Source: Gammaproteobacteria bacterium
GTDB taxonomy: Bacteria > Pseudomonadota > Gammaproteobacteria > JABABF01
Assembly: GCA_965215045.1 (NCBI GenBank)
Contig: OZ244031.1
Coordinates: 1,386,626-1,450,625 of the forward strand
DNA length: 64,000 nucleotides
Direction: 5' to 3'
This document shows, piece after piece, positions 44,538 through 61,044 of this stretch (position 1 is its first letter; every line of letters begins with the position of its first letter). The notes below the pieces were generated by a model, which was not told the DNA's origin, searched no databases, and saw nothing but the letters and a program-made list of their open reading frames with translations. The position numbers and the translations under genes were made by a program.

Positions 44538-45350
44538 TTACTTGATCTTGACAAACTTCAGTGTGAAGCGGTCGCTCTCACCGATGGCCTGGTATTTCTC
44601 CCGGTCCTGGTCTCCCAGGCGCATGACGGGGGGCAGGGTCCACACCCCCGCGGGATAGTTCTTTTCATCCCTGGGATTGGCGTTGATCTCGGAGCGGCCG
44701 ACCAGGCGAAATCCCGCCGACTCGATCAGCTGTATTGCGTATTCCTCCGGCACATAACCGGAACTCGCCATGTCCTCCACGCTCATACCGGGAAAGCCCC
44801 GGTGTTCGACCACGCCGAAGATGCCGCCCGGCTTGAGTGAGTGCCATGCCGCATCGAACACTTCTGAAATATAGCCCTCGCTGATCCAGTTGTGCAGGTT
44901 GCGGAAGGTCAGCACCATGTCGGCACTTTCCTCCGGGGCGATGTCATAGTTTCCGCGTCCCAGGGAAGTGATTTTGACCGCGGAGAATGCTGGATTGTCC
45001 CGGATCGCCTCCTCGTATTTCTGCCGGAACCTGCGCCGGTACTCCGGCGTGGGGTCGGGCGGAAAATGCGCGGCATACAGGGTGCCTTTTTTTTGCAGGT
45101 AGGGAGCGAGAATGCGGCTGTACCAGCCGGAGCCGGGCCACAACTCCACCACCGTCATATCCCGTTCAATACCAAGGAATTGCAGCGTCTCCACCGGGTG
45201 CCGGTAGATATCCCGCGCCTGTTCCTCCGCCGGACGCTCCGGCGAAGCCGTGGCGCGCTCCAGGGCCCGGCGTTCCCCGCAGGCCCCCAGGGTCAGGAGC
45301 AGCAGGGCGCACGGTACGGCAAGGCGAATAAAGTTCAGGCTGGGGTGCAT
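44538..45350 (-). CDS. Class I SAM-dependent methyltransferase, predicted lipoprotein
   Basis: Lipobox LLTLGAC; MTase motif VVELWPGSGWYSRIL. Confidence 0.55.
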   Translation of the reverse strand: MHPSLNFIRLAVPCALLLLTLGACGERRALERATASPERPAEEQARDIYRHPVETLQFLGIERDMTVVELWPGSGWYSRILAPYLQKKGTLYAAHFPPDPTPEYRRRFRQKYEEAIRDNPAFSAVKITSLGRGNYDIAPEESADMVLTFRNLHNWISEGYISEVFDAAWHSLKPGGIFGVVEHRGFPGMSVEDMASSGYVPEEYAIQLIESAGFRLVGRSEINANPRDEKNYPAGVWTLPPVMRLGDQDREKYQAIGESDRFTLKFVKIK

Positions 45351-45420: not shown

Positions 45421-46911
45421 CTAAACCATATTGCCCCTGTGGTTTGAAATCCAGCCACCCGTCCCACCGGGATGCAGAAGTCTTCCGGGTTCATCGTTCT
45501 TCTGCAGAAGTTCGGGTGAAAGCATTTCCAGTAGTTCAATGGAATACCAGAATTTATTACCTACTGGTGGTCGTGCAACACCTCTCCACCACGTCTCATG
45601 CTGATTTAGAACTTCCTCAGCATGCTTTTTTTGTTCCGGGGCAGCACCGCTGCCATCTCTACGCATTTTCTCGTAATATTTCTGTAATTGTAATAGCCGA
45701 TCATACTGCTCCACACTTAAATTCTCCGCTATATCCTCGGCCGCTACTATCATTGCGGCTTCAAACCAGCACCCCTCTACCTCCTGTCGTAACCTTGCCA
45801 GGGCTTCCGAGCCAGGATTTTCAAACACTGCATCGACGACTTCCTTGTCCGATGCATTTCTAGTGATAAATCGGTAATACATATCTTGATTGATGGTTTT
45901 TAAGATAAGCATTGCAGTGATCTCTGAAATGAATGATTTGTCGTCATTGGGTAATAGTGCCAACATCGCCCTCATCTGGTGGAGGGCCTGGGCGATATCT
46001 CGAGCACTGAGTTGGCTCGCTGCAAAAAATTTTTGAAAACGATCTCTACTACAAAACAGCTCAGAAGGATTCTTGGTAAACCATCTATTGACATCAACAG
46101 ACCTGAGCATTGTTTCAACAAAGTCTTTTAGTGGCGGGTAGGGAAGCCTGAACGGCAGGTCGAAGAAGCGCAGCAGGTATTTCTCTGCATCGAATTCATT
46201 GCCGTACAGGGCCCGCACCGAATGCGCCAGCTGTTCCCGGTTTACCGCCAACACGAACACGATGTTGTCGACGGCGAACAGGTGCTTGGCGGTTTCCAGG
46301 AATTCTACGGCGTAGCTGGGTCTGCAGCGGTCCAGTTCATCGATGATCACCACCAATGGTTTGTCGCGTTTTTTTCTCAATGCTTCTGCCGACTCCTCCA
46401 GGGTGCTTCTGAAGTCTGTGATCAAGTCGCGGTTTTTTGAGTACTCGGACAATTGTGGCTTGCCGAAGAAGCTGAGTATTTTGTCAATATTGATCCAGCC
46501 TCCTGTTTTATATCGTATGGCGTCTGAAAAAACTTGTATTAATACTTTTTTCCCTGTTTTCTTCAGGCTGGCGATTGTTTCTGACGGTACCTCCCCCGGG
46601 TAATATTTTTGCAGACGGTCGGTCAGTTCAGAGGATAGGGCGATAAAAGGGACCTTCGTAAAATCCGTCTTCCAAGCATTGAACTTTACCACCGGAAACT
46701 TCTCGTTGCGCAGGTATTGCATCCACATCCTGAGAAACGTGGTCTTGCCTGCCCCCCATGGTGCATCGACCGACAACACGCACGGTCCGGTGATGGAGTT
46801 GATGACGTCGGTCAGGATTTTTGCCGCCTCCTCACGCTTGAACAGGTCATTTGCAAAGGGGTTACCTTCAGGTGCTTCCACCTCCAGCGGCTGAATACGC
46901 ATTTTTGCCAT
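45421..46911 (-). CDS. KAP-family P-loop NTPase
   Basis: Walker A DAPWGAGKTTFL and KAP-type Walker B VVIIDELDRCRP; markedly lower GC than surroundings. Confidence 0.7.
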   Translation of the reverse strand: MAKMRIQPLEVEAPEGNPFANDLFKREEAAKILTDVINSITGPCVLSVDAPWGAGKTTFLRMWMQYLRNEKFPVVKFNAWKTDFTKVPFIALSSELTDRLQKYYPGEVPSETIASLKKTGKKVLIQVFSDAIRYKTGGWINIDKILSFFGKPQLSEYSKNRDLITDFRSTLEESAEALRKKRDKPLVVIIDELDRCRPSYAVEFLETAKHLFAVDNIVFVLAVNREQLAHSVRALYGNEFDAEKYLLRFFDLPFRLPYPPLKDFVETMLRSVDVNRWFTKNPSELFCSRDRFQKFFAASQLSARDIAQALHQMRAMLALLPNDDKSFISEITAMLILKTINQDMYYRFITRNASDKEVVDAVFENPGSEALARLRQEVEGCWFEAAMIVAAEDIAENLSVEQYDRLLQLQKYYEKMRRDGSGAAPEQKKHAEEVLNQHETWWRGVARPPVGNKFWYSIELLEMLSPELLQKNDEPGRLLHPGGTGGWISNHRGNMV

Positions 46912-51344: not shown

Positions 51345-51523
51345 GACCGTCCCCCGGATGGTGATGCGGGATTGCCAGTATACAGCCGCCCCGGGCCTCC
51401 GCCATCTCTAATGGGGCGTTTTCGGCGTGCTCTTATAACCGTACATGCGGGTTGACTGATGGCGTTTATCAGTGCCAGACTGGAGATGAAAAGCGCGGTC
51501 TGAGCCTTTGCGGAGGAGACAAC

Positions 51524-51769
51524 ATGAGCCTCGAAATGTTTCGTGAATTTCTCGGTTGGAGTGCCTTGCTTAACATCGCCCTGGTGCTCTGGTGGTTTTC
51601 GTGGATTGTTTTTTTCCACGACTTCCTCTACCGCATACACAGCCGCTGGTTCAAGTTCTCCTCCGTTGAGAGCTTCGACACCATCCACTATGTGGGCATC
51701 GCTTTTTACGAAATCGTGGTCTGGGCATTTTTCATCATTCCCTGGATTGCCCTGCACATCGTCAGCTGA
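51524..51769 (+). CDS. Small (81 aa) two-TM membrane protein, paralogue 1
   Basis: ATG after GGAGGAG SD; MSLEMFREFLGWSALLNIALVLWWFSW...AFFIIPWIALHIVS. Confidence 0.45.
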   Translation: MSLEMFREFLGWSALLNIALVLWWFSWIVFFHDFLYRIHSRWFKFSSVESFDTIHYVGIAFYEIVVWAFFIIPWIALHIVS

Positions 51770-51824: not shown

Positions 51825-52070
51825 ATGATGAGTCTTGAAATTTTGCGCGCCGTCCTGGGCTGGTCTGCACTGCTGCAGCTGGGCCTGTTGTTCTCGTGGT
51901 GGCTGCTTTTCCTGCGTGTGCACGATGCGGTCTACCAAACGTGCAGCCGCTGGTTCAAACTCACCCCGGAGGGCTTTGATACCGCCAACTACGCGGCCAT
52001 CGGCTTCTACAAGGTCCTGGTCTGGGCGTTTTTCATCATTCCCTGGCTCGTCCTGCACATCATCGCCTGA
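51825..52070 (+). CDS. Small (81 aa) two-TM membrane protein, paralogue 2
   Basis: ATG after GAGGAG SD; MMSLEILRAVLGWSALLQLGLLFSWW...AFFIIPWLVLHIIA, ~50% identical to paralogue 1. Confidence 0.45.
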   Translation: MMSLEILRAVLGWSALLQLGLLFSWWLLFLRVHDAVYQTCSRWFKLTPEGFDTANYAAIGFYKVLVWAFFIIPWLVLHIIA

Positions 52071-52106
52071 GCAGCGGCCGGCCTCCCGCCTTCCAGGCGG
52101 CGGTTC

Positions 52107-53087
52107 TCAGGGAGTGCGGCTTTCGTAAATCAATTTTTTTAAAGTATCGAGATCGTCACTGGCGATCATATCCAGATGAACCCCGAGTGTGTCTGAGACA
52201 CATCGTGCTTGCGCCTTTTCTTCTGCCTGCCATTTCCTGATAAAGGAGAGATCATATTTTTTGTGGTCCCTGTTTTGCAGATTATCGCGAATCATCTCCG
52301 CATTTCCCTGCAGCAGGATCAGACGATCGGGTTTCATAGTGCGAAACACTGCCACATCCACGGGCTCAATCTTTCCTTCTTGATTTAGAAGCGTGAAATG
52401 CCCGGTGATTAACAACCGTCGATGTCGTGTCTGAATACGTCGGATTTCCTCGAGTAATACGTCTTGATTGCCTTTAATATCCTGCACCCGTTTTTCCGCC
52501 TTCGTCATTTTTTTTCTGCGCGCAGAAATTAAATCACCGGCATTAAAGTGTTGGTATCCCATCAACTTGGGCATTTCCTCGGCGAGCGTGCTTTTGCCGA
52601 CACCATGAACACCTCCCATGAAAAGCAATGAGTTGCGAACGGTAGGGTCCACGGATTTACGTTCAGAGATCAGTTTCATGTCTGCATCATCCAGGTAACG
52701 AAAAGATTGCGGGGGAACCGGGCAAGCGGACAGGGCGGATAAAGCGAGGGGAGTTTCCATCTCGTAGATATCACCCAGGATAAAGACGATCGCCGTGCTG
52801 CATCCCGCATAATACTCGCGGAATATGCGTCGCGAAATACCGGCACCGATTGCGGTTTTGTCCCAAATTCTCGTCGGGGGCTCCGCCAGGAGCCGCAGAA
52901 CCTCGGCGATGGCGACGATTTTTTGCGTGGGTGCACTGCAATAGAATGCAAGCTGTGAAATTTCATGCCGGGGGAGAGCTTTACGGTATTCAAAAATTTT
53001 CTTCCCCGATAGAATATTATCGATATGCTCGCGGTAGATAGAAACCAGGGCTGCCTTTTTCATTGAGCCGCTCTTGAATGAAAGCAT
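52107..53087 (-). CDS. ASCH (PUA-like) domain fused to a P-loop kinase-like NTPase
   Basis: N-terminal ASCH-like beta-barrel region (ILSGKKIFEYRK...); C-terminal Walker A LFMGGVHGVGKSTLAEE plus Walker B-like LITGHF; low-GC, overlaps the upstream gene by ~28 nt. Confidence 0.5.
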   Translation of the reverse strand: MLSFKSGSMKKAALVSIYREHIDNILSGKKIFEYRKALPRHEISQLAFYCSAPTQKIVAIAEVLRLLAEPPTRIWDKTAIGAGISRRIFREYYAGCSTAIVFILGDIYEMETPLALSALSACPVPPQSFRYLDDADMKLISERKSVDPTVRNSLLFMGGVHGVGKSTLAEEMPKLMGYQHFNAGDLISARRKKMTKAEKRVQDIKGNQDVLLEEIRRIQTRHRRLLITGHFTLLNQEGKIEPVDVAVFRTMKPDRLILLQGNAEMIRDNLQNRDHKKYDLSFIRKWQAEEKAQARCVSDTLGVHLDMIASDDLDTLKKLIYESRTP

Positions 53088-54538
53088 TTTTTATACCCAT
53101 CATGGTCGATTTCCCGTATGCTTTGAATTTGGCCTCTTACCCCGGCCTGCTTGAGTTCTGCGAGGCCAACGGGATCAATTTCTCGCATGAAGCGAAAAAG
53201 AATCACCAGGGTTTCTTTTTTCAACCACTCTTTGACTCGCACTTTTGCATAGACGGTTCGTTTGGACACCAGGGGCAGTACATCATTGATTTTATTCCCG
53301 CGATAAACACGCTCCACCACCCCGATGCACCGTATATCCCGGCAGTCTCCTGACCGGTAAAACAACAATAAACTGCCCGGGTCAATTTTTTTAGTCTTGG
53401 AGTGACAGATATAAGCGTTTTTGATGGTATTGGTTTCAGGTGTGTACTGGCTGGGGTCATCTGCGAACCGGCCGCGATGAATTTCCGCATCGGGGAAGAG
53501 ATCTCGATGATACTTGGGCTGAACCGGGACAATAAATTTTTTAATAGAACGCTCATCGGAATATAACGGGTAGTATCTGGTTGCGTATTCCAGGGGGCTG
53601 AGTGCGGTATCCGGTGATGTTAGAGGGCGCATGGTTTTCACATACGCCTTGTCTCTTTCTTTGTATGTCCCGCAATCTTGGAAACCAAAGTTCTCACACA
53701 GTGATACCAATGCTTCCCGCTCCTCGCCAAATATGTGTAGGTAGACGTACGGAATCTTTTTTTCTGCGGCATAGTGGAAGGCGGTATAGAGTAATCTTTC
53801 GCCGGTTTTCCGTCCGCGTATGTTTTCTCCCACTTTGAATGTGCATAGTTTTAATGCCGTTCCGTCCAGCTTGTCCCCCGCATCATTAATGACGGGATTT
53901 TCCTCCTGCTGGTAAATGCAAATTGCCTGCACCGTGTCGTTGTCCGTAATACACCATGCTTGTCCTCCCTTGTGCGCCATTTTTTCAAACCATTGCTCGT
54001 ATCCTTCGGAACCCTGACGCAAGGAATCAAAGAACGGTTGTCGGACATCCAATTCATGCAAAAAGCGTCTTTCAACACTACCGGGAGGACTGAATTCTTC
54101 TTCGTTTAAAGTTTCCAGGTGACTGTAAAATTGCACAACACGGTGTACTCTCTCCTCGACTCCAGCCTTTTTGGCCTTTTTATAGATTTCCCGGTCTTCG
54201 GTGACGAAATAGTCGACGGCTCCCCGGCACAGGGCGTGAAGCAATAGATTATCTGTATGCTCCTTCTCGTTGCCCTGTCGCCACCCGTAGCGTTTCAATT
54301 CCTCTTCGGTCAGTTCGGGAAGGGGTTCGATTTGCGGGTACCGGGCCATCCTGGATAACAGTATTTCTTGTCTTTTTTCATTTTTATCCCGTTCAATTTC
54401 CCGCCCTTGGTCGGGCCGGGTATATAAGATATATCCCTGTTGTGCACACCACCTGAGCATTTCTGCGAGCTTGGGGTCCAGCTCCACATCCGGCTCTTCC
54501 ACCTGAATGATGATGTTGGTGTCGATGAGTACCCGCAT
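53060..54538 (-). CDS. Three-domain protein: N-terminal PIN nuclease, central GNAT acetyltransferase, C-terminal ASCH/EVE (PUA-like) domain
   Basis: PIN acidic residues MRVLIDTNIII...FVTEDRE; GNAT core ...HIFGEEREALVSLCENFGFQDCG with RGRKTGERLL (acetyl-CoA P-loop-like Q/RxxGxG/A); C-terminal barrel-like region. Low GC. Confidence 0.5.
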   Translation of the reverse strand: MRVLIDTNIIIQVEEPDVELDPKLAEMLRWCAQQGYILYTRPDQGREIERDKNEKRQEILLSRMARYPQIEPLPELTEEELKRYGWRQGNEKEHTDNLLLHALCRGAVDYFVTEDREIYKKAKKAGVEERVHRVVQFYSHLETLNEEEFSPPGSVERRFLHELDVRQPFFDSLRQGSEGYEQWFEKMAHKGGQAWCITDNDTVQAICIYQQEENPVINDAGDKLDGTALKLCTFKVGENIRGRKTGERLLYTAFHYAAEKKIPYVYLHIFGEEREALVSLCENFGFQDCGTYKERDKAYVKTMRPLTSPDTALSPLEYATRYYPLYSDERSIKKFIVPVQPKYHRDLFPDAEIHRGRFADDPSQYTPETNTIKNAYICHSKTKKIDPGSLLLFYRSGDCRDIRCIGVVERVYRGNKINDVLPLVSKRTVYAKVRVKEWLKKETLVILFRFMREIDPVGLAELKQAGVRGQIQSIREIDHDGYKKCFHSRAAQ

Positions 54539-54744
54539 GTTTTGTTACCCGCCAGGTCCTTGTAATTGAGCCATCTTTGCCAGCCTTGTTTTCCTGTGCA
54601 AAGCCTTTGCCTGCGCTGCCCGGGAAATCAGTCAGTCGCAGACGAGCGGGCTGGCAAAAGTCGATGCCCCCATTATAAACGGCTTATTCTGTGCGACCCG
54701 GTGCCCTGAGAACTGGGCGGATATACACGGCTTCCAAACGCTAT

Positions 54745-55479
54745 TCAGACGGGCTCAGGCAGTTGTGAGCCCCAGGTTTCAGGGCTGATCTCAGCCCAGT
54801 GCCAGGGGTCCTCGGGGCCGGGCAGGGCGCGGGCCCGCTGCAGGCGCTGCAGGAACTCCTGGCGGGGGATGGTCTCTGCTCCCAGGGTGGCCAGGTGCGG
54901 GCTGTGCAGCTGGCAGTCGATCAGCGCAAAGCCCCGGGCATGCAGTTGGGCGCAGAGGTGGGCCAGGGCGATCTTGGAGGCATCGGGCCGCAGTGCGAAC
55001 ATGGACTCGCCGGCAAAATAACGGCCCAGGGCGAGGCCGTAGAGGCCGCCGGCCAGCGTATCGCCCTCCCAGACTTCCACGCTGTGTGCGATACCCTTCC
55101 GGTGCAGGATGCAAAAGCTTTTTTGCAGGGCGTGGCTGATCCAGGTTCCCTCGCGCCGGGTCTCGGCGCAGGCATCGATGACCCGGTCGAAGGCGGTATC
55201 GACGCTGACCCGGTAATCATCGCGGCGCAAGCGTCGGCGCAGGGAGTGCGAGATGTGCATCTTGGCGGTGAACAGGACGCTGCGCGGGTCGGGGCACCAC
55301 CACAGGTTCAGATTGCGATCATCGCTCCACGGGAAAATGCCCCGCTCGTAGGCGGCGACCAGGGTTTGCGGTTCCAGGTCGGCTCCGATCGCCAGCAGGC
55401 CGTTGGGAACCTGCAGCGCATTTTCTGCCGGTGGGAAGTTGCGTTCGCCCGGGGCGAGCCGTACGACAATCCCGGACAT
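54745..55479 (-). CDS. aat: Leucyl/phenylalanyl-tRNA--protein transferase
   Basis: Start at the internal Met (MSGIVV...) giving 244 aa; conserved Aat motifs (GIFPWS, LWWCPDPR, GESMF). Confidence 0.8.
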   Translation of the reverse strand: MSGIVVRLAPGERNFPPAENALQVPNGLLAIGADLEPQTLVAAYERGIFPWSDDRNLNLWWCPDPRSVLFTAKMHISHSLRRRLRRDDYRVSVDTAFDRVIDACAETRREGTWISHALQKSFCILHRKGIAHSVEVWEGDTLAGGLYGLALGRYFAGESMFALRPDASKIALAHLCAQLHARGFALIDCQLHSPHLATLGAETIPRQEFLQRLQRARALPGPEDPWHWAEISPETWGSQLPEPV

Positions 55480-55507
55480 GCTGGACGCCCCGGCCGCTGC
55501 GGCTCTC

Positions 55508-56791
<1,284 letters not shown>

Positions 56792-57056
56792 GAGCGAAGA
56801 ACCGGTTGCCTGTGTTGTCTTGGTCTGGCGGGGTACTGCCCGCACTGCTGGAGAGCAATTAATCGGCGGACCAGTATAGCAGATTGCCGGATTTGCCCGA
56901 CTTTCCGGGGCGGCCCCGGGAGTGCCTTCTATCCGTCATATCACGGCGGGGGACGGGGGCGGACCCGTGCTCCGCCGTATGCAGACGGCGGGCGACAACC
57001 CACCCACTTTGCGCCGCCCGGGAGCGGCCGGCACCGGGCCTTGACAACAGCGCGGT

Positions 57057-57764
57057 TTAGCGGATTTCCCCGGTCACCCGGACGCGCTTGGCACCGGCTG
57101 CAGGAAGAGGCGCGCGCCTGGCTTCAAGGATTTTCTCGATGCGCAGGTTCAGCAGGCGGTGCAGGGCGATCAGCAGGCCGGTAAAAATAAAGGCTCCGGG
57201 CGGCAGTACCGCAACCAGCACCGGCTGGTAGTCTGCCATGAGCACCCAGTGCCAGTCGCGCGCGGCCTCGCCGAACAGCAGGTGCATGTTGCTGAACAAT
57301 GCACCGCTGCCCGTCAGTTCGCGCAGGGCACCCAGCAGCACCAGCACCGCCAGGAAGCCCAGGCCGGTGAACAGTCCATCGGTGGCGGAGGCCAGCACGT
57401 CATTGCGCCGCGCAAAGGCCTCGGCGCGCCCTAAGATCACGCAGTTGGTGACGATGATCGGAATAAAAATCCCCAGCACCTGGTAGAGCCGGTAGGTGTA
57501 CGCCTGCATGAGCAGTTCGATGCAGGTGGTGAAGGCGGCGATAATCATCACGAAGGCGGGCAGGCGGATGGTCTCCGGGACCTGCCGGCGCACCAGGGAG
57601 ACGCTGATGTTGGACATCGTCAGCACGGCGACGGTGGCCAGCCCCAGTCCCAGGGCGTTGACCACGGAATTGCTAACGCCCAGCAGCGGGCACAGTCCCA
57701 GCAGCTGCACCAGTGCCGGGTTGTTCTTCCACAGTGCGTTGAGGCTGATTTCGCGGTATTTCAT
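57057..57764 (-). CDS. rnfE: Ion-translocating oxidoreductase complex subunit E
   Basis: Polytopic RnfE/RsxE membrane protein (LGLCPLLGVSNSV...); last gene of the rnf operon. Confidence 0.85.
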   Translation of the reverse strand: MKYREISLNALWKNNPALVQLLGLCPLLGVSNSVVNALGLGLATVAVLTMSNISVSLVRRQVPETIRLPAFVMIIAAFTTCIELLMQAYTYRLYQVLGIFIPIIVTNCVILGRAEAFARRNDVLASATDGLFTGLGFLAVLVLLGALRELTGSGALFSNMHLLFGEAARDWHWVLMADYQPVLVAVLPPGAFIFTGLLIALHRLLNLRIEKILEARRAPLPAAGAKRVRVTGEIR

Positions 57765-58480
57765 GGTTGTGCCTGGCGGTGCTCTGCCGCCTCTTCGCTG
57801 AACAGGCTGCGGTGGTTCTGCCGGGTGTATTCCAGTGCGCGCCGCACGGCGGCCACCACCGCCCGGGGCGTGATCGTCGCCCCGGTGAACTGGTCAAACA
57901 CGCCGCCATCTCGCCGCACCCGCCATTGTTCCGGTGCCGGGTCCCGCAGCGACTTGCCGTTGAAGTCCAGCACCCACGGCGATTTTTGCAGTTCCAACTG
58001 GTCACCCAGCCCGGGCGTCTCGCGGTGTGCGATCACCCGCACCCCGCTGATACGGCCGTCCCGGGCGACGCCGATCAACATATCGATGGCACCAGTATAG
58101 CCATCCGGTGCCCGCAGCGGAAGAATGACCGCAGCGATACGTTCGTCCCGGCGGGCGATAAAGGCGGTGCGGGGCTCGGCGTAGCCCAGCACCCCGGCGT
58201 CGCCGGGCGGCGTGAAGGCCTCATCCAGCATGTCATTGTCGTGTTGTTCGCGCGGGATGATCGCGAGCAGTGCGGCATTGCGCAACAGGCGTTTTTGTTC
58301 CAGGATGCGCTCGCGGGTGTTCAACTGGATGCCGACCACCAGCGCGGTGCAGAATGCGGCCAGCAGTGCCAGCAGGACGCTGTTTTTGCCGATCGTGGAG
58401 ACCATACCCGGTGCTGCATCCCGGGTCTCTTCGGGGGTCTCTTCGGGAGAGTGCCCCGGTTCCTCGTTCTCAGTGTTCAT
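57761..58480 (-). CDS. rnfG: Ion-translocating oxidoreductase complex subunit G
   Basis: N-terminal TM followed by FMN-binding domain (TGATITPRAVV covalent-FMN Thr motif). Confidence 0.8.
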   Translation of the reverse strand: MNTENEEPGHSPEETPEETRDAAPGMVSTIGKNSVLLALLAAFCTALVVGIQLNTRERILEQKRLLRNAALLAIIPREQHDNDMLDEAFTPPGDAGVLGYAEPRTAFIARRDERIAAVILPLRAPDGYTGAIDMLIGVARDGRISGVRVIAHRETPGLGDQLELQKSPWVLDFNGKSLRDPAPEQWRVRRDGGVFDQFTGATITPRAVVAAVRRALEYTRQNHRSLFSEEAAEHRQAQP

Positions 58481-59507
58481 GTCCGTAAACCCTGGGGATG
58501 GTGTAGCGGTCGATCAGCGGCGCGCAAAAATTCATCAGCAGCACGCAGAAGGCGATGGCGTCCGGGTAGTTGCTCCAGCCGCGCATCACGAACAGCAGGA
58601 TGCCGGCGCCGATGCCGAACACCAGGCGTCCGGGCTTGCTGGTTGCCGAACTGACCGGGTCGGTGAGAATGAAAAAAGCACCCAGCATCGTCGCCCCGGA
58701 GAACAGGTGAAACAGCGGCGAGCCCAGGCTGTTGGAGGCACCGCCGGCGTAAAACAGCACGGAGAGCAGCAGCAGGGTACCCAGCATGCCCGCCGGTGCA
58801 TGCCAGCTGAAAATGCCGCGGTAGAGCAGGTACAGGCCGCCCAGCAGGAAGGCGGCGTTGATCCATTCCCAGCCCAGGCCGCCCCAGGTGCCGAATTGCG
58901 GGTAGGCCGCCCACAGTTCGACGTTGGTCATCCCGTCATCGTTGGCGAACAGGTCCAGGGGGGTCGCCATGGTGAAGCCGTCCAGGGCCGCTGCGTTGCC
59001 CAACTTGAATTGCAGTGCCGGCAATGGCCCGGGCGGGACGTATTCCGGCGTCACCCCGCGCGGTGCTCCCCACGTGGTCATCTCCACCGGGAAGGAAATC
59101 AGCAACACGACGTAGCCGACCATCGCCGGGTTGAAGGGGTTGTAGCCCAGGCCGCCGTAGACATGCTTGCCCAGCAGTACCGCGCACAGCGTGCCGCTGA
59201 CCGGGATCCACCACGGGCAGTCGGGTGGCAGTGCCACGCCCAGCAACACGGCGGTGACCAGGATGCTGCAGTCGCGCAGGTAAAAACCCAGTGGGCGCCC
59301 GCGCAGGCGGAGAGCGGCGATTTCGCCCAGCACGGCACTGAGGGTGCACAGCAGCAGGTTGTACAGGATGCCGGGGCCGAAGAACCAGGCCAGCACCAGG
59401 GTGCCCGGGACGGCGGCGAATAATACCTGGCGCATCACGCCCGCCGTATCCGCCTTGTCGTGCGTGTACGGGGAGGTCGACAGGGGCTGTGCGAACGGGT
59501 TATTCAT
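58470..59507 (-). CDS. rnfD: Ion-translocating oxidoreductase complex subunit D
   Basis: Start at MNNPFAQPL overlapping rnfC stop; NqrB/RnfD family polytopic protein with FMN-attachment region (SGATMLGAFFILTDPVSSATS). Confidence 0.8.
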   Translation of the reverse strand: MNNPFAQPLSTSPYTHDKADTAGVMRQVLFAAVPGTLVLAWFFGPGILYNLLLCTLSAVLGEIAALRLRGRPLGFYLRDCSILVTAVLLGVALPPDCPWWIPVSGTLCAVLLGKHVYGGLGYNPFNPAMVGYVVLLISFPVEMTTWGAPRGVTPEYVPPGPLPALQFKLGNAAALDGFTMATPLDLFANDDGMTNVELWAAYPQFGTWGGLGWEWINAAFLLGGLYLLYRGIFSWHAPAGMLGTLLLLSVLFYAGGASNSLGSPLFHLFSGATMLGAFFILTDPVSSATSKPGRLVFGIGAGILLFVMRGWSNYPDAIAFCVLLMNFCAPLIDRYTIPRVYGHEH

Positions 59508-61044
59508 CCGTTTCGGGTTCATCTTCCCGGGTGCGCACCCGTTCCAGGGCCTCCTGGATGGCATCTGCCTCTGCCTTGGATTGTGCCTGTGCCCGCCTGG
59601 CCCGGCGTGCGGCCTCCTGTTCGCGCCGCTCCCGCGCAAGGCGCTGTTCGCGGAATTCAAAACGCTGCTTGGCGATCTCGGCCTGTGCCCGCTCGGTGTT
59701 CTGCCGGTTGATCTCCCCCTTGGCGGAACGGTAGTACTGCACCAGCGGAATATGGCTGGGGCAGACCCAGGCGCAGGCCCCGCATTCGATGCAGTCGAAC
59801 AGGTGATGTTCTTCCAGCTGTTCGTGGTCACCCGCCTGGGCGTACCAGTACAGCTGCTGGGGCAGCAGTTTTGCCGGGCAGACCTCGTCACACATCCCGC
59901 AGCGGATGCAGGGCTGGGCGGGTGGCGGCGGCGGGACTTCCCGCACGGTGGCGGCGAGCAGGCAGTTGGTGCTTTTCACCACGGGTGTCTCCAGGGAGGG
60001 CAGGGCGAAGCCCATCATTGGCCCGCCCATGATCAGCTGTGAGAGCTGTTCTTCCTGCAAACCGCTCTGCTGCAGCAGGTGCGAGGCCGGTGTGCCGAGC
60101 AGTGCCTCGTAATTCTGCGGGCGGCGCACGGCACCGCCGGTGACGGTGGTGACGCGGTGGATCAGCGGCTCGCCCTTCTCCAGTGCGCGGTGGATGCTCG
60201 CCGCGGTGGCGACGTTCTGGCACACCACGCCGACATCGGCGGGCAACTGGCCGCTGGGCACCTCGCGTCCCAGCAGCATCTGCACCAACTGGCGCTCGCC
60301 GCCGGAGGGGTAGTGCGTCGGCGTGGGCATGACTTTGAAACCGCTGCCCTGTGCCGCCGCCTGCAGTGCGGCGATCGCCTCCGGTTTATTGTCTTCGACT
60401 GCCAGCAGCACTTCCCTGGGTTCCAGCAGGTGGGCGATGATCTGCGTGCCGGCGATGATTTCGTCTGCGCGCTCGCGCATGAGCACGTCATCGGCGGTGA
60501 TGTACGGCTCGCACTCCACGCCGTTGAGGATCAGGGTGTGAATCGTTCTCTGTGCGCCCGGGTCCAGCTTGACCGCGGTCGGAAAACTGGCACCGCCCAG
60601 GCCGGTGATGCCGGCGTCCCGGATATGCTCCAGCACCTCCGCGGGCGGCAGTTCCTGCCAGCGCCCGGGAATCTCGCGCTCCACCCATTGTTCGGCACCG
60701 TCGGGTGCGATGATCATGCACGGTGCCAACAACCCCGAGGGGTGCGGCACCGGACGCTCTTCGATCGTCAGCACTTTGCCGGAACTCGGTGCGTGCACGG
60801 AGGCGCTGATGTGGACGGAACTGCGGGCAATGGGCTGTCCCTTGAGCACCTTGTCACCGGGACGCAGCAGGGGCTCGGCGGGTTGCCCCGCATGCTGGGT
60901 GAGCGGCAGCACCAGGTGCTGGGGCAGGCCCGCCGGCACGATGCCGGCGGACTGGGAGTGCCGCTTGTGTCCCGTCAATACCAGGCCCGGCGGGAGACTG
61001 CCGGGAACGCGCGTCTTGTGGGATACGGAGCGGTTGCCGTACAT
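59500..61044 (-). CDS. rnfC: Ion-translocating oxidoreductase complex subunit C
   Basis: NADH-binding GITGLGGASFPT and two 4Fe-4S clusters (CIRCGMCDEVCP, CIECGACAWVCP); charged C-terminal tail. Confidence 0.85.
   Translation of the reverse strand: MYGNRSVSHKTRVPGSLPPGLVLTGHKRHSQSAGIVPAGLPQHLVLPLTQHAGQPAEPLLRPGDKVLKGQPIARSSVHISASVHAPSSGKVLTIEERPVPHPSGLLAPCMIIAPDGAEQWVEREIPGRWQELPPAEVLEHIRDAGITGLGGASFPTAVKLDPGAQRTIHTLILNGVECEPYITADDVLMRERADEIIAGTQIIAHLLEPREVLLAVEDNKPEAIAALQAAAQGSGFKVMPTPTHYPSGGERQLVQMLLGREVPSGQLPADVGVVCQNVATAASIHRALEKGEPLIHRVTTVTGGAVRRPQNYEALLGTPASHLLQQSGLQEEQLSQLIMGGPMMGFALPSLETPVVKSTNCLLAATVREVPPPPPAQPCIRCGMCDEVCPAKLLPQQLYWYAQAGDHEQLEEHHLFDCIECGACAWVCPSHIPLVQYYRSAKGEINRQNTERAQAEIAKQRFEFREQRLARERREQEAARRARRAQAQSKAEADAIQEALERVRTREDEPETDE

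Follow-up and report, generated by a model that had tools for sequence, protein, structure and literature searches.

An atypical stand-alone copy of the (PIN)-GNAT-EVE/ASCH module, a candidate toxin-antitoxin-like defence system, in a gammaproteobacterial genome

Operons built around a '(PIN)-GNAT-EVE' protein were described by Bell, Wolf and Koonin (2020; PMC7641849), who found an ASCH protein in almost all of them and an AAA_17 protein in many, reported that the PIN-containing form is closely tied to type I restriction-modification (R-M) systems, and noted that none of the modules had been characterised. Matelska et al. (2017; PMC5499597) had described the same module as the PIN_15/PIN_17 'PIN-GNAT-PUA' arrangement, and both papers credit Iyer et al. 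(2013), whose proposal, as summarised there, was nucleic-acid acetylation. Payne et al. (2024) collected 145 untested phage defence candidates (PDCs) from genes within BREX, DISARM and type I R-M loci; they and Bell et al. (2020) independently arrived at a role in defence from genomic context. Here we analyse a pair of genes, A and B, in a 64,000-nt stretch of the genome of a Gammaproteobacteria bacterium (contig OZ244031.1, positions 1,386,626 to 1,450,625; hereafter the window). Both proteins matched the PADLOC candidate system PDC-M11 (models PDC-M11A and PDC-M11B), and their genes are adjacent on one strand. Judged from its sequence, the pair is a further, atypical and somewhat degenerate stand-alone copy of the known (PIN)-GNAT-EVE/ASCH module and not a new system. 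The original prediction for this locus had suggested a new system of unrecognised architecture and had named a match to an already described system as grounds for giving that up. PDC-M11 is such a match, and the operon had already been described (Bell et al. 2020; Matelska et al. 2017), so the claim of novelty falls.

Two overlapping genes had been predicted on the minus strand, and both open reading frames (ORFs) are present there:

53060..54538 including the stop, minus strand: gene A, a PIN-GNAT-EVE protein of 492 aa (ORF; PADLOC PDC-M11A)
52107..53063 including the stop, minus strand: gene B, an ASCH and adenylate-kinase-like fusion protein of 318 aa (N-terminal part matching PADLOC PDC-M11B)
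53060..53063, minus strand: ATGA junction, with the ATG of B on the TGA of A (from the sequence, the start of B being taken from the homologue alignment)

Gene B almost certainly starts at the ATG at 53063, the ninth codon of its longest ORF (52107..53087), because all homologues begin there and the public gene call is 318 aa. The predicted overlap of the two genes therefore holds, although its extent is the ATGA at 53060-53063 instead of 28 nt. This ATGA overlap indicates translational coupling of A and B, an arrangement typical of coupled partners.

At least 872 proteins of about 490 aa are homologous to A. The protein aligned with PDC-M11A at E 1.6e-124 (residues 1-483 on profile positions 1-478 of 486), and its structure model had a predicted local distance difference test score (pLDDT) of 78. 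Pfam scans were made at the level of the family, with 24 diverse members including the window copy, and three domains were assigned:

54095..54538, minus strand: PIN domain of A (aa 1-148; Pfam PIN_3 at family level, conserved acidic residues)
53624..54076, minus strand: GNAT acetyltransferase domain of A (about aa 155-305; conserved beta4-alpha3 loop)
53078..53581, minus strand: EVE (PUA-like) domain of A (about aa 320-487; Pfam EVE in the family, Foldseek)

Pfam PIN_3 matched 19 of the 24 members (best E 2.8e-7). The window copy scored E 0.03, yet it aligned across profile positions 1-114 of 115, and the acidic residues D6 (in LIDTN), E14, D51, D96 (TDN) and D115 (VTED) are invariant or nearly so. 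A profile of the PIN segment searched against PDB sequences gave weak top matches, 1O4W (E 0.22) and 3IX7, which serve as supporting leads. It is the Pfam scans of individual members that identify the N-terminus of A, at the level of the family, as the PIN domain that had been predicted for it.

The GNAT domain is marked by its beta4-alpha3 loop, R241-G242-R243-K244-T-G246-E247-R248, which is invariant or nearly so in a 20-sequence alignment (residues 240-250, window 53789..53821). Within it, R243-x-x-G246-x-R248 agrees with the canonical motif A (R/Q-x-x-G-x-G/A) at two positions out of three. A GNAT domain had been predicted, with toxins of the AtaT/TacT type brought up for comparison. The domain is there, and its resemblance is a broader one: in Foldseek the best matches were N-alpha-acetyltransferases in general, with TacT1 (7AK8) at rank 35 (E 6.6e-6).

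For the C-terminus of A, an ASCH/EVE-like domain had been proposed. Its PUA-like nature was borne out, but Pfam assigns EVE and not ASCH, with matches to the last ~185 residues of 22 of the 24 members (best E 2e-5). Alone of the 24, the window copy had no Pfam EVE match at E <= 1. It carries the signature motifs NTIK(K>N)AY at 370-376, LLLFYRS at 390-396 and KRTVY at 426-430, and the top Foldseek match of the A model was the PUA-like ZmASCH (5Y6B; E 2e-7, target TM-score 0.73). The EVE segment profile gave a weak match to the EVE protein 1ZCE among PDB sequences (E 0.75), again a supporting lead. In an hhalign comparison, the EVE domain of A showed only a distant relationship to the ASCH domain of B (E 8e-4, probability 25%).

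Protein B matched PDC-M11B at E 4e-29 (aa 13-137 on profile positions 3-127 of 132), and 21 full-length ASCH-kinase fusion homologues were found in a large protein database. Its structure model (pLDDT 88.5, predicted TM-score 0.81) has two parts:

52653..53063, minus strand: ASCH domain of B (aa 1-137; motifs GxKxxExR at G20-R27, Y41, and PPQSF at 117-121)
52110..52637, minus strand: adenylate-kinase-like P-loop domain of B (aa 143-318; Pfam AAA_17, E 9.5e-18)

The prediction of an ASCH-like domain joined to a P-loop kinase was accurate. The closest solved relative of the ASCH domain is ZmASCH, a protein that binds single-stranded nucleic acid and cleaves single-stranded RNA in vitro, and the key ZmASCH residues Y47 and S128 are retained in B, as Y41 and S120. 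An identity as a YqfB-type amidohydrolase was rejected, as ZmASCH alone was recovered and 1TE7 gave no match at E <= 1. An AAA+ ATPase was likewise rejected for the C-terminal part, the fold of which is adenylate-kinase-like.

In the kinase domain, the Walker A motif GGVHGVGKS (150-158) is intact. Other positions conserved among 32 homologues have changed: D220T turns LLLDGHF into LLITGHF (window 52395..52409) at an Asp kept in 32/32 homologues, R261N replaces a LID Arg kept in 31/32 (window 52266..52289), and S176G is a third case, with 31-32/32 homologues agreeing at the three sites. B consequently lacks the full set of features of an adenylate or nucleoside monophosphate kinase (Walker A, D-G-x catalytic Asp and LID arginines). 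A sister copy on another contig, L086, has the same substitutions, and the kinase domain is probably catalytically inactive in this subclade and maintained for another reason. That the catalytic Asp and the LID Arg are lost while the gene stays open argues that kinase activity is dispensable.

Relatives of the module were confirmed in at least 177 of 185,579 species-representative genomes by a pattern scan with one genome per species. They occur in Proteobacteria, Chlorobi, Bacteroidales, Verrucomicrobia, Lentisphaerae, Spirochaetes, Actinobacteria and many archaea, the latter including methanogens, Thermoplasmata and Altiarchaea. We counted gene contexts in 80 fetched loci, 43 of them with at least 4 kb on both sides. 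The ASCH gene adjoins A in 77 of the 80, the remaining three being truncated or without room for it; in 74 loci it lies on the same strand and usually overlaps A, and in three it is convergent. The conserved co-occurrence that the original prediction had put forward as a check is therefore found. The kinase domain is an optional accessory of the module: it is fused to ASCH in 15 loci, encoded by a separate third gene in 3 and absent from 59. In a metagenome-assembled genome (MAG) of the Bacteroidaceae, the gene after A (L057 3300..4763, plus strand) encodes a 487-aa ASCH-RhuM/Fic fusion that matched the N-terminus of B at E 5e-22 and a RhuM/Fic protein at E 3e-60, so the ASCH partner can carry a Fic-type domain in place of the kinase. 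RhuM/Fic genes downstream of the pair were also seen in four further loci (L010, L034, L039 and L081).

The commonest neighbours, identified as clustered ORFs and confirmed with Pfam, were HsdS, HsdM and HsdR. They occur in 36 of the 80 loci and in 25 of the 43 with at least 4 kb of flanks, typically in the order M-S-A-B-R. In Acidithiobacillus ferrivorans, the order is hsdM-hsdS-A-B-(two small ORFs)-RhuM/Fic-hsdR-mazEF. Other recurrent neighbours were Schlafen/AlbA_2, HNH, Fic, AAA_21 and YhcG-PDDEXK genes. A family that spans bacteria and archaea, usually sits inside type I R-M operons and combines an RNase, an acetyltransferase and two domains of the modified-base-reader type is of interest well beyond this copy.

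Relatives also travel on phages, prophages and plasmids. In Escherichia phage PhiR47_2 (PV340567.1), a GNAT-EVE and an ASCH gene lie just downstream of cI and are labelled 'GevT toxin' and 'GevA antitoxin'. GevT is 28% identical to A over aa 141-398 (BLASTP E 1e-21), GevA, an ASCH protein of 125 aa, is 35% identical to B over aa 6-124 (BLASTP E 1e-23), and the two match the same PDC-M11 models as A and B. Such PIN-less GNAT-EVE and ASCH pairs occur in lambdoid and Lactobacillus prophages. The sole full-length PIN-GNAT-EVE match in the phage collection was ORFD of the Methanothermobacter prophage psiM100 (L085 4001..5479), which is 28% identical to A over 98% of its length and is part of the 'inserted fragment IFa'. 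The next ORF, ORF5 (129 aa), overlaps it and occupies the position expected for ASCH. Relatives were found in 33 plasmid records as well, of which 11 are conjugative.

These occurrences could mean that the module is a counter-defence or addiction module derived from a mobile element or phage and benefits the element and not the host, an idea that Bell et al. (2020; PMC7641849) raise for PIN-less forms. We regard this as very improbable here. Around the window copy we found no flanking direct repeats, integrase or phage genes, the nearest tRNAs are more than 28 kb away, and the full-length PIN form is found for the most part on chromosomes, inside R-M loci. Furthermore, the site after cI in lambdoid phages is the position of rexAB in lambda, which we take to be typical of prophage-borne host-defence cargo.

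With modest confidence, we favour the reading that the module is a toxin-antitoxin-like defence system, a candidate for abortive infection, that is usually nested in type I R-M operons. This was the broad direction of the original prediction, and the context of the family supports it well. The reading builds on direct observations, namely the domains, the ATGA coupling, the order of A followed by ASCH, the R-M and prophage contexts and the foreign base composition described below; any specific biochemical step carries far less confidence than the reading as a whole. Protein A would be the effector. Its EVE domain may dock on a modified nucleotide of an RNA, most plausibly a tRNA, and the GNAT domain would then move an acetyl group from acetyl-CoA to that substrate, either to an aminoacyl amine, as TacT and AtaT do, or to a base. 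The PIN domain would cleave RNA, and either acetylation or cleavage could halt translation. The active sites of A look maintained, given how little the PIN acidic residues and the GNAT loop vary in the family. Protein B, made in step with A, would hold A silent through its ZmASCH-like domain for binding single-stranded nucleic acid, which would either bind A or occupy or process the substrate that A acts on, and the adenylate-kinase-like domain would be a dispensable nucleotide-dependent accessory with a regulatory role. Phage infection would free A, and the infection would be aborted. In copies that lie inside R-M loci, A may be released when the R-M complex is interfered with, in analogy to PrrC-EcoprrI.

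Several points weigh against this reading. The literature searched held no published evidence of toxicity or phage defence for any family member, and no publication was found behind the labels GevT and GevA, which are record annotations. The layout is unlike that of classical type II toxin-antitoxin systems in that the large 'toxin' comes first and the 'antitoxin' second. We found no HsdR, HsdM or HsdS homologues among the ORFs of the 64-kb window, and deviations of A from conserved positions, given below, raise the possibility that this copy is impaired. What A acts on, what triggers it and how B neutralises it are all points that we infer. Finally, Matelska et al. (2017; PMC5499597) described the PIN-associated GNAT as lacking motif A and possibly inactive. 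The strong conservation of the loop suggests that the GNAT pocket is still in use, which makes this claim of inactivity worth testing.

The embedding in R-M operons also bears on what Iyer et al. (2013) proposed, according to Bell et al. (2020; PMC7641849) and Matelska et al. (2017; PMC5499597). Here, the GNAT domain would acetylate a DNA base, possibly in an RNA-guided or RNA-primed manner, EVE and ASCH would read the mark, and the module would add a layer of self/non-self discrimination to the surrounding type I R-M system. Two PUA-like domains of the modified-base-reader type and the tight embedding between hsdS and hsdR are what such epigenetic marking would lead one to expect. In addition, the fusions of ASCH to HsdS in Methanohalophilus and to helix-turn-helix domains in alpha-proteobacteria (Bell et al. 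2020; PMC7641849) suggest DNA binding, and an ASCH protein, YqfB, is an N4-acetylcytidine amidohydrolase, which makes a GNAT/ASCH pairing of writer and eraser conceivable. However, a conserved and apparently catalytic PIN RNase fits DNA marking poorly, the closest solved relative of the ASCH domain of B is the RNA-cleaving ZmASCH and not YqfB, a PIN-less relative (GevT) is annotated as a toxin, and the module persists in the window without R-M genes. On balance, we consider marking of this kind, by acetylation of bases in DNA or RNA, unlikely, if worth keeping in mind.

In favour of the toxin-antitoxin-like reading there is also the setting of the pair in the window, which is that of an acquired islet. 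As predicted, the 2,432-bp A-B segment is AT-rich: its GC content is 0.484, compared with 0.641 +/- 0.032 in non-overlapping stretches of the window (z = -4.9), the lowest of 616 equally long stretches. GC at third codon positions (GC3) is 0.52 in both A and B and 0.74-0.82 in the flanking aat, gltA, acyl-CoA dehydrogenase and GFA genes. By its base composition, the islet is of foreign origin, in line with the horizontal acquisition that had been proposed. Its neighbours are ordinary chromosomal genes. Upstream, on the strand of A and B, lie aat (Leu/Phe-tRNA protein transferase), citrate synthase and rnf genes; on the other side are two tandem DUF6868 genes, a GFA-family gene and acyl-CoA dehydrogenases. 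Two non-coding features border the operon:

54539..54744, minus strand: intergenic region of 206 nt from aat to gene A, presumed promoter region (sequence)
52086..52100, no strand assigned: short GC hairpin CCGCC-TGGAA-GGCGG, possible shared terminator, in the 36 nt that separate the convergent stops of B and a DUF6868 gene

A consensus scan of the 206-nt gap between aat and gene A revealed no sigma-70-like site. The hairpin has a stem of just 5 bp and no T-run and was not called by the terminator scan, and the promoter and terminator scans returned nothing usable near the A-B operon.

The DUF6868 genes (51452..51769 and 51825..52070, both on the plus strand) are tandem paralogues that encode small membrane proteins (Pfam E 4.5e-28 and 2.9e-25). 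They are convergent with gene B, share 74-77% nucleotide identity over the repeats, and have an intermediate GC content (0.50-0.58) with a host-like GC3. A second islet of low GC (0.484; GC3 0.547) lies ~5 kb from A-B and comprises 45421..46911 and 44538..45350, both on the minus strand. It encodes a KAP-family P-loop NTPase (Pfam E 5.9e-41) that matches the PADLOC candidate PDC-S20 at E 1e-108 and, more weakly, PifA and QatA; the adjoining ORF of 270 aa had no Pfam match. Two defence candidates within ~9 kb give the region a mild defence-island character.

The chance adjacency to aat, the product of which uses aminoacyl-tRNA, could be taken to mean that the pair is a housekeeping or stress module of RNA metabolism, for tRNA modification or repair, with no role in conflict. 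PUA-like domains, GNATs and P-loop kinases are all known in RNA modification and repair, and the tRNA acetyltransferase TmcA is a GNAT precedent. We give this interpretation very little credence. The spread of the family is very patchy and crosses unrelated phyla of both domains, its base composition here is foreign, the pair is found in R-M operons, plasmids and prophages, and the kinase and even the PIN domain are dispensable in relatives.

What sets this copy apart can be seen by comparison with its nearest relatives. A single relative, on contig L086, is 76% identical to A, and all others are at most 55% identical. On L086, aat is again directly upstream (L086 1..795 versus window 54745..55461) and is 90% identical, while B is about 85% identical. 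The genes of the L086 pair are also low in GC (A 0.49, B 0.53). Considering that the site downstream of aat is the same in both lineages, the insertion predates their split and the genes have been kept open since. The module evolves much faster than aat and without drift towards the GC content of the host.

Conservation in A was assessed over 72 columns conserved in at least 95% of 71 homologues (for B, 32 homologues were used). The window copy deviates at 10 of the 72, namely at H41R, Y177S, R192G and K374N, at all four of which 71/71 homologues agree, and at K210Q among others; K374N sits inside the NTIKKAY signature of the EVE domain. One rival explanation is accordingly that the pair came in with an R-M locus, or to serve one, and survives here as an orphan remnant in decay, its function lost in part or altogether. 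Besides these deviations, the absence of hsd genes from the 64 kb, the loss of D220 and R261 from the kinase and the missing Pfam EVE match all point in that direction. Nevertheless, both ORFs are full length with their ATGA coupling intact, and A retains its PIN acidic residues and GNAT loop just as B retains its ASCH motifs and Walker A. The sister lineage moreover has the pair at the same aat site with the same kinase substitutions, its ORFs open over substantial divergence. We allow decay a small chance.

A still closer sequence was found in the MAG contig L087, which matches window 60204..53030 at 98.83% identity with 84 mismatches. Of these, 49 fall within A codons 285-458 (window 53160..53690), that is, in the EVE domain and linker, where 26 codon changes are non-synonymous and 16 synonymous; codons 1-284 differ by one amino-acid change. 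L087 has K374, the consensus residue, in its EVE allele, which is similar to that of the 76%-identical relative (P0002). The EVE segment looks like an exchanged allele, a recombination tract that swapped the EVE module, and the concentration of mismatches in it points to EVE as the specificity module. The rnf region (window 58250..58499) holds a smaller cluster, with 12 mismatches over 250 nt, and patchy recombination is therefore not confined to gene A.

An exchangeable EVE block would have a particular meaning if the module were a toxin-antitoxin pair of writer and eraser that guards type I R-M systems, in which GNAT marks, PIN cuts the marked RNA and ASCH erases the mark or competes for it, in the manner of DarT/DarG. 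The EVE-guided GNAT would then modify tRNA, or nucleic acid of the phage or the host, with a mark that might for example resemble N4-acetylcytosine, and replacing the EVE block would amount to target-specificity switching, like the exchange of target-recognition domains in HsdS. We consider this elaboration quite unlikely.

Compared with known systems, A shares with VapBC a VapC-like PIN fold with conserved acidic residues. It differs in that PIN is one domain of a 492-aa protein and that a 206-nt gap followed by aat lies upstream, where no VapB-type small antitoxin ORF was found; a classical VapBC pair was rejected on size, order and partner. With TacT, AtaT and ItaT, A has the GNAT fold in common, and translation arrest by acetylation of aminoacyl-tRNA is a plausible model for its action. 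Those toxins have a single domain, are ~170 aa long and are preceded by a ribbon-helix-helix (RHH)/DUF1778 antitoxin, whereas A has three domains and a non-canonical motif A, with aat as the upstream gene and its ASCH partner downstream. A TacAT-type (AtaRT/ItaRT) pair was rejected on the same three grounds as VapBC.

ZmASCH from Zymomonas mobilis (PDB 5GUQ/5GUS), the closest solved relative of the ASCH domain, is a stand-alone protein of ~149 aa, the K53 of which aligns with Q47 of B, with K48 adjacent. The resemblance to PrrC and RloC is one of setting: a latent RNA-targeting effector would sit among hsd genes, as A-B relatives do, and PrrC is almost exclusively embedded in type I R-M systems (Payne et al. 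2024). There is no sequence or domain relationship, PrrC being of the ABC-ATPase type with a nuclease domain of its own, and the comparison is an analogy only. GevT/GevA has the same gene order, with GNAT-EVE followed by an overlapping ASCH gene, and matches the same PDC-M11 models; it differs in that GevT has no PIN domain, GevA has no kinase, and the pair is prophage cargo beside cI.

In relation to the (PIN)-GNAT-EVE/ASCH family (PDC-M11) itself, the window copy is an orphan: the 64 kb lack R-M genes, which are typical neighbours and not obligatory ones. Its kinase lacks D220 and R261, and A has unusual substitutions such as K374N. Persistence of the pair without neighbouring R-M genes offers a practical handle on the family. 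The fusion of ASCH to the P-loop domain is seen in 15 of the 80 loci, and the PADLOC B models span ASCH alone. In all other respects compared, the pair agrees with its family: A has the three domains, ASCH follows immediately downstream, an AAA_17 partner is present, and its relatives show the same phyletic spread and the same embedding in type I R-M loci.

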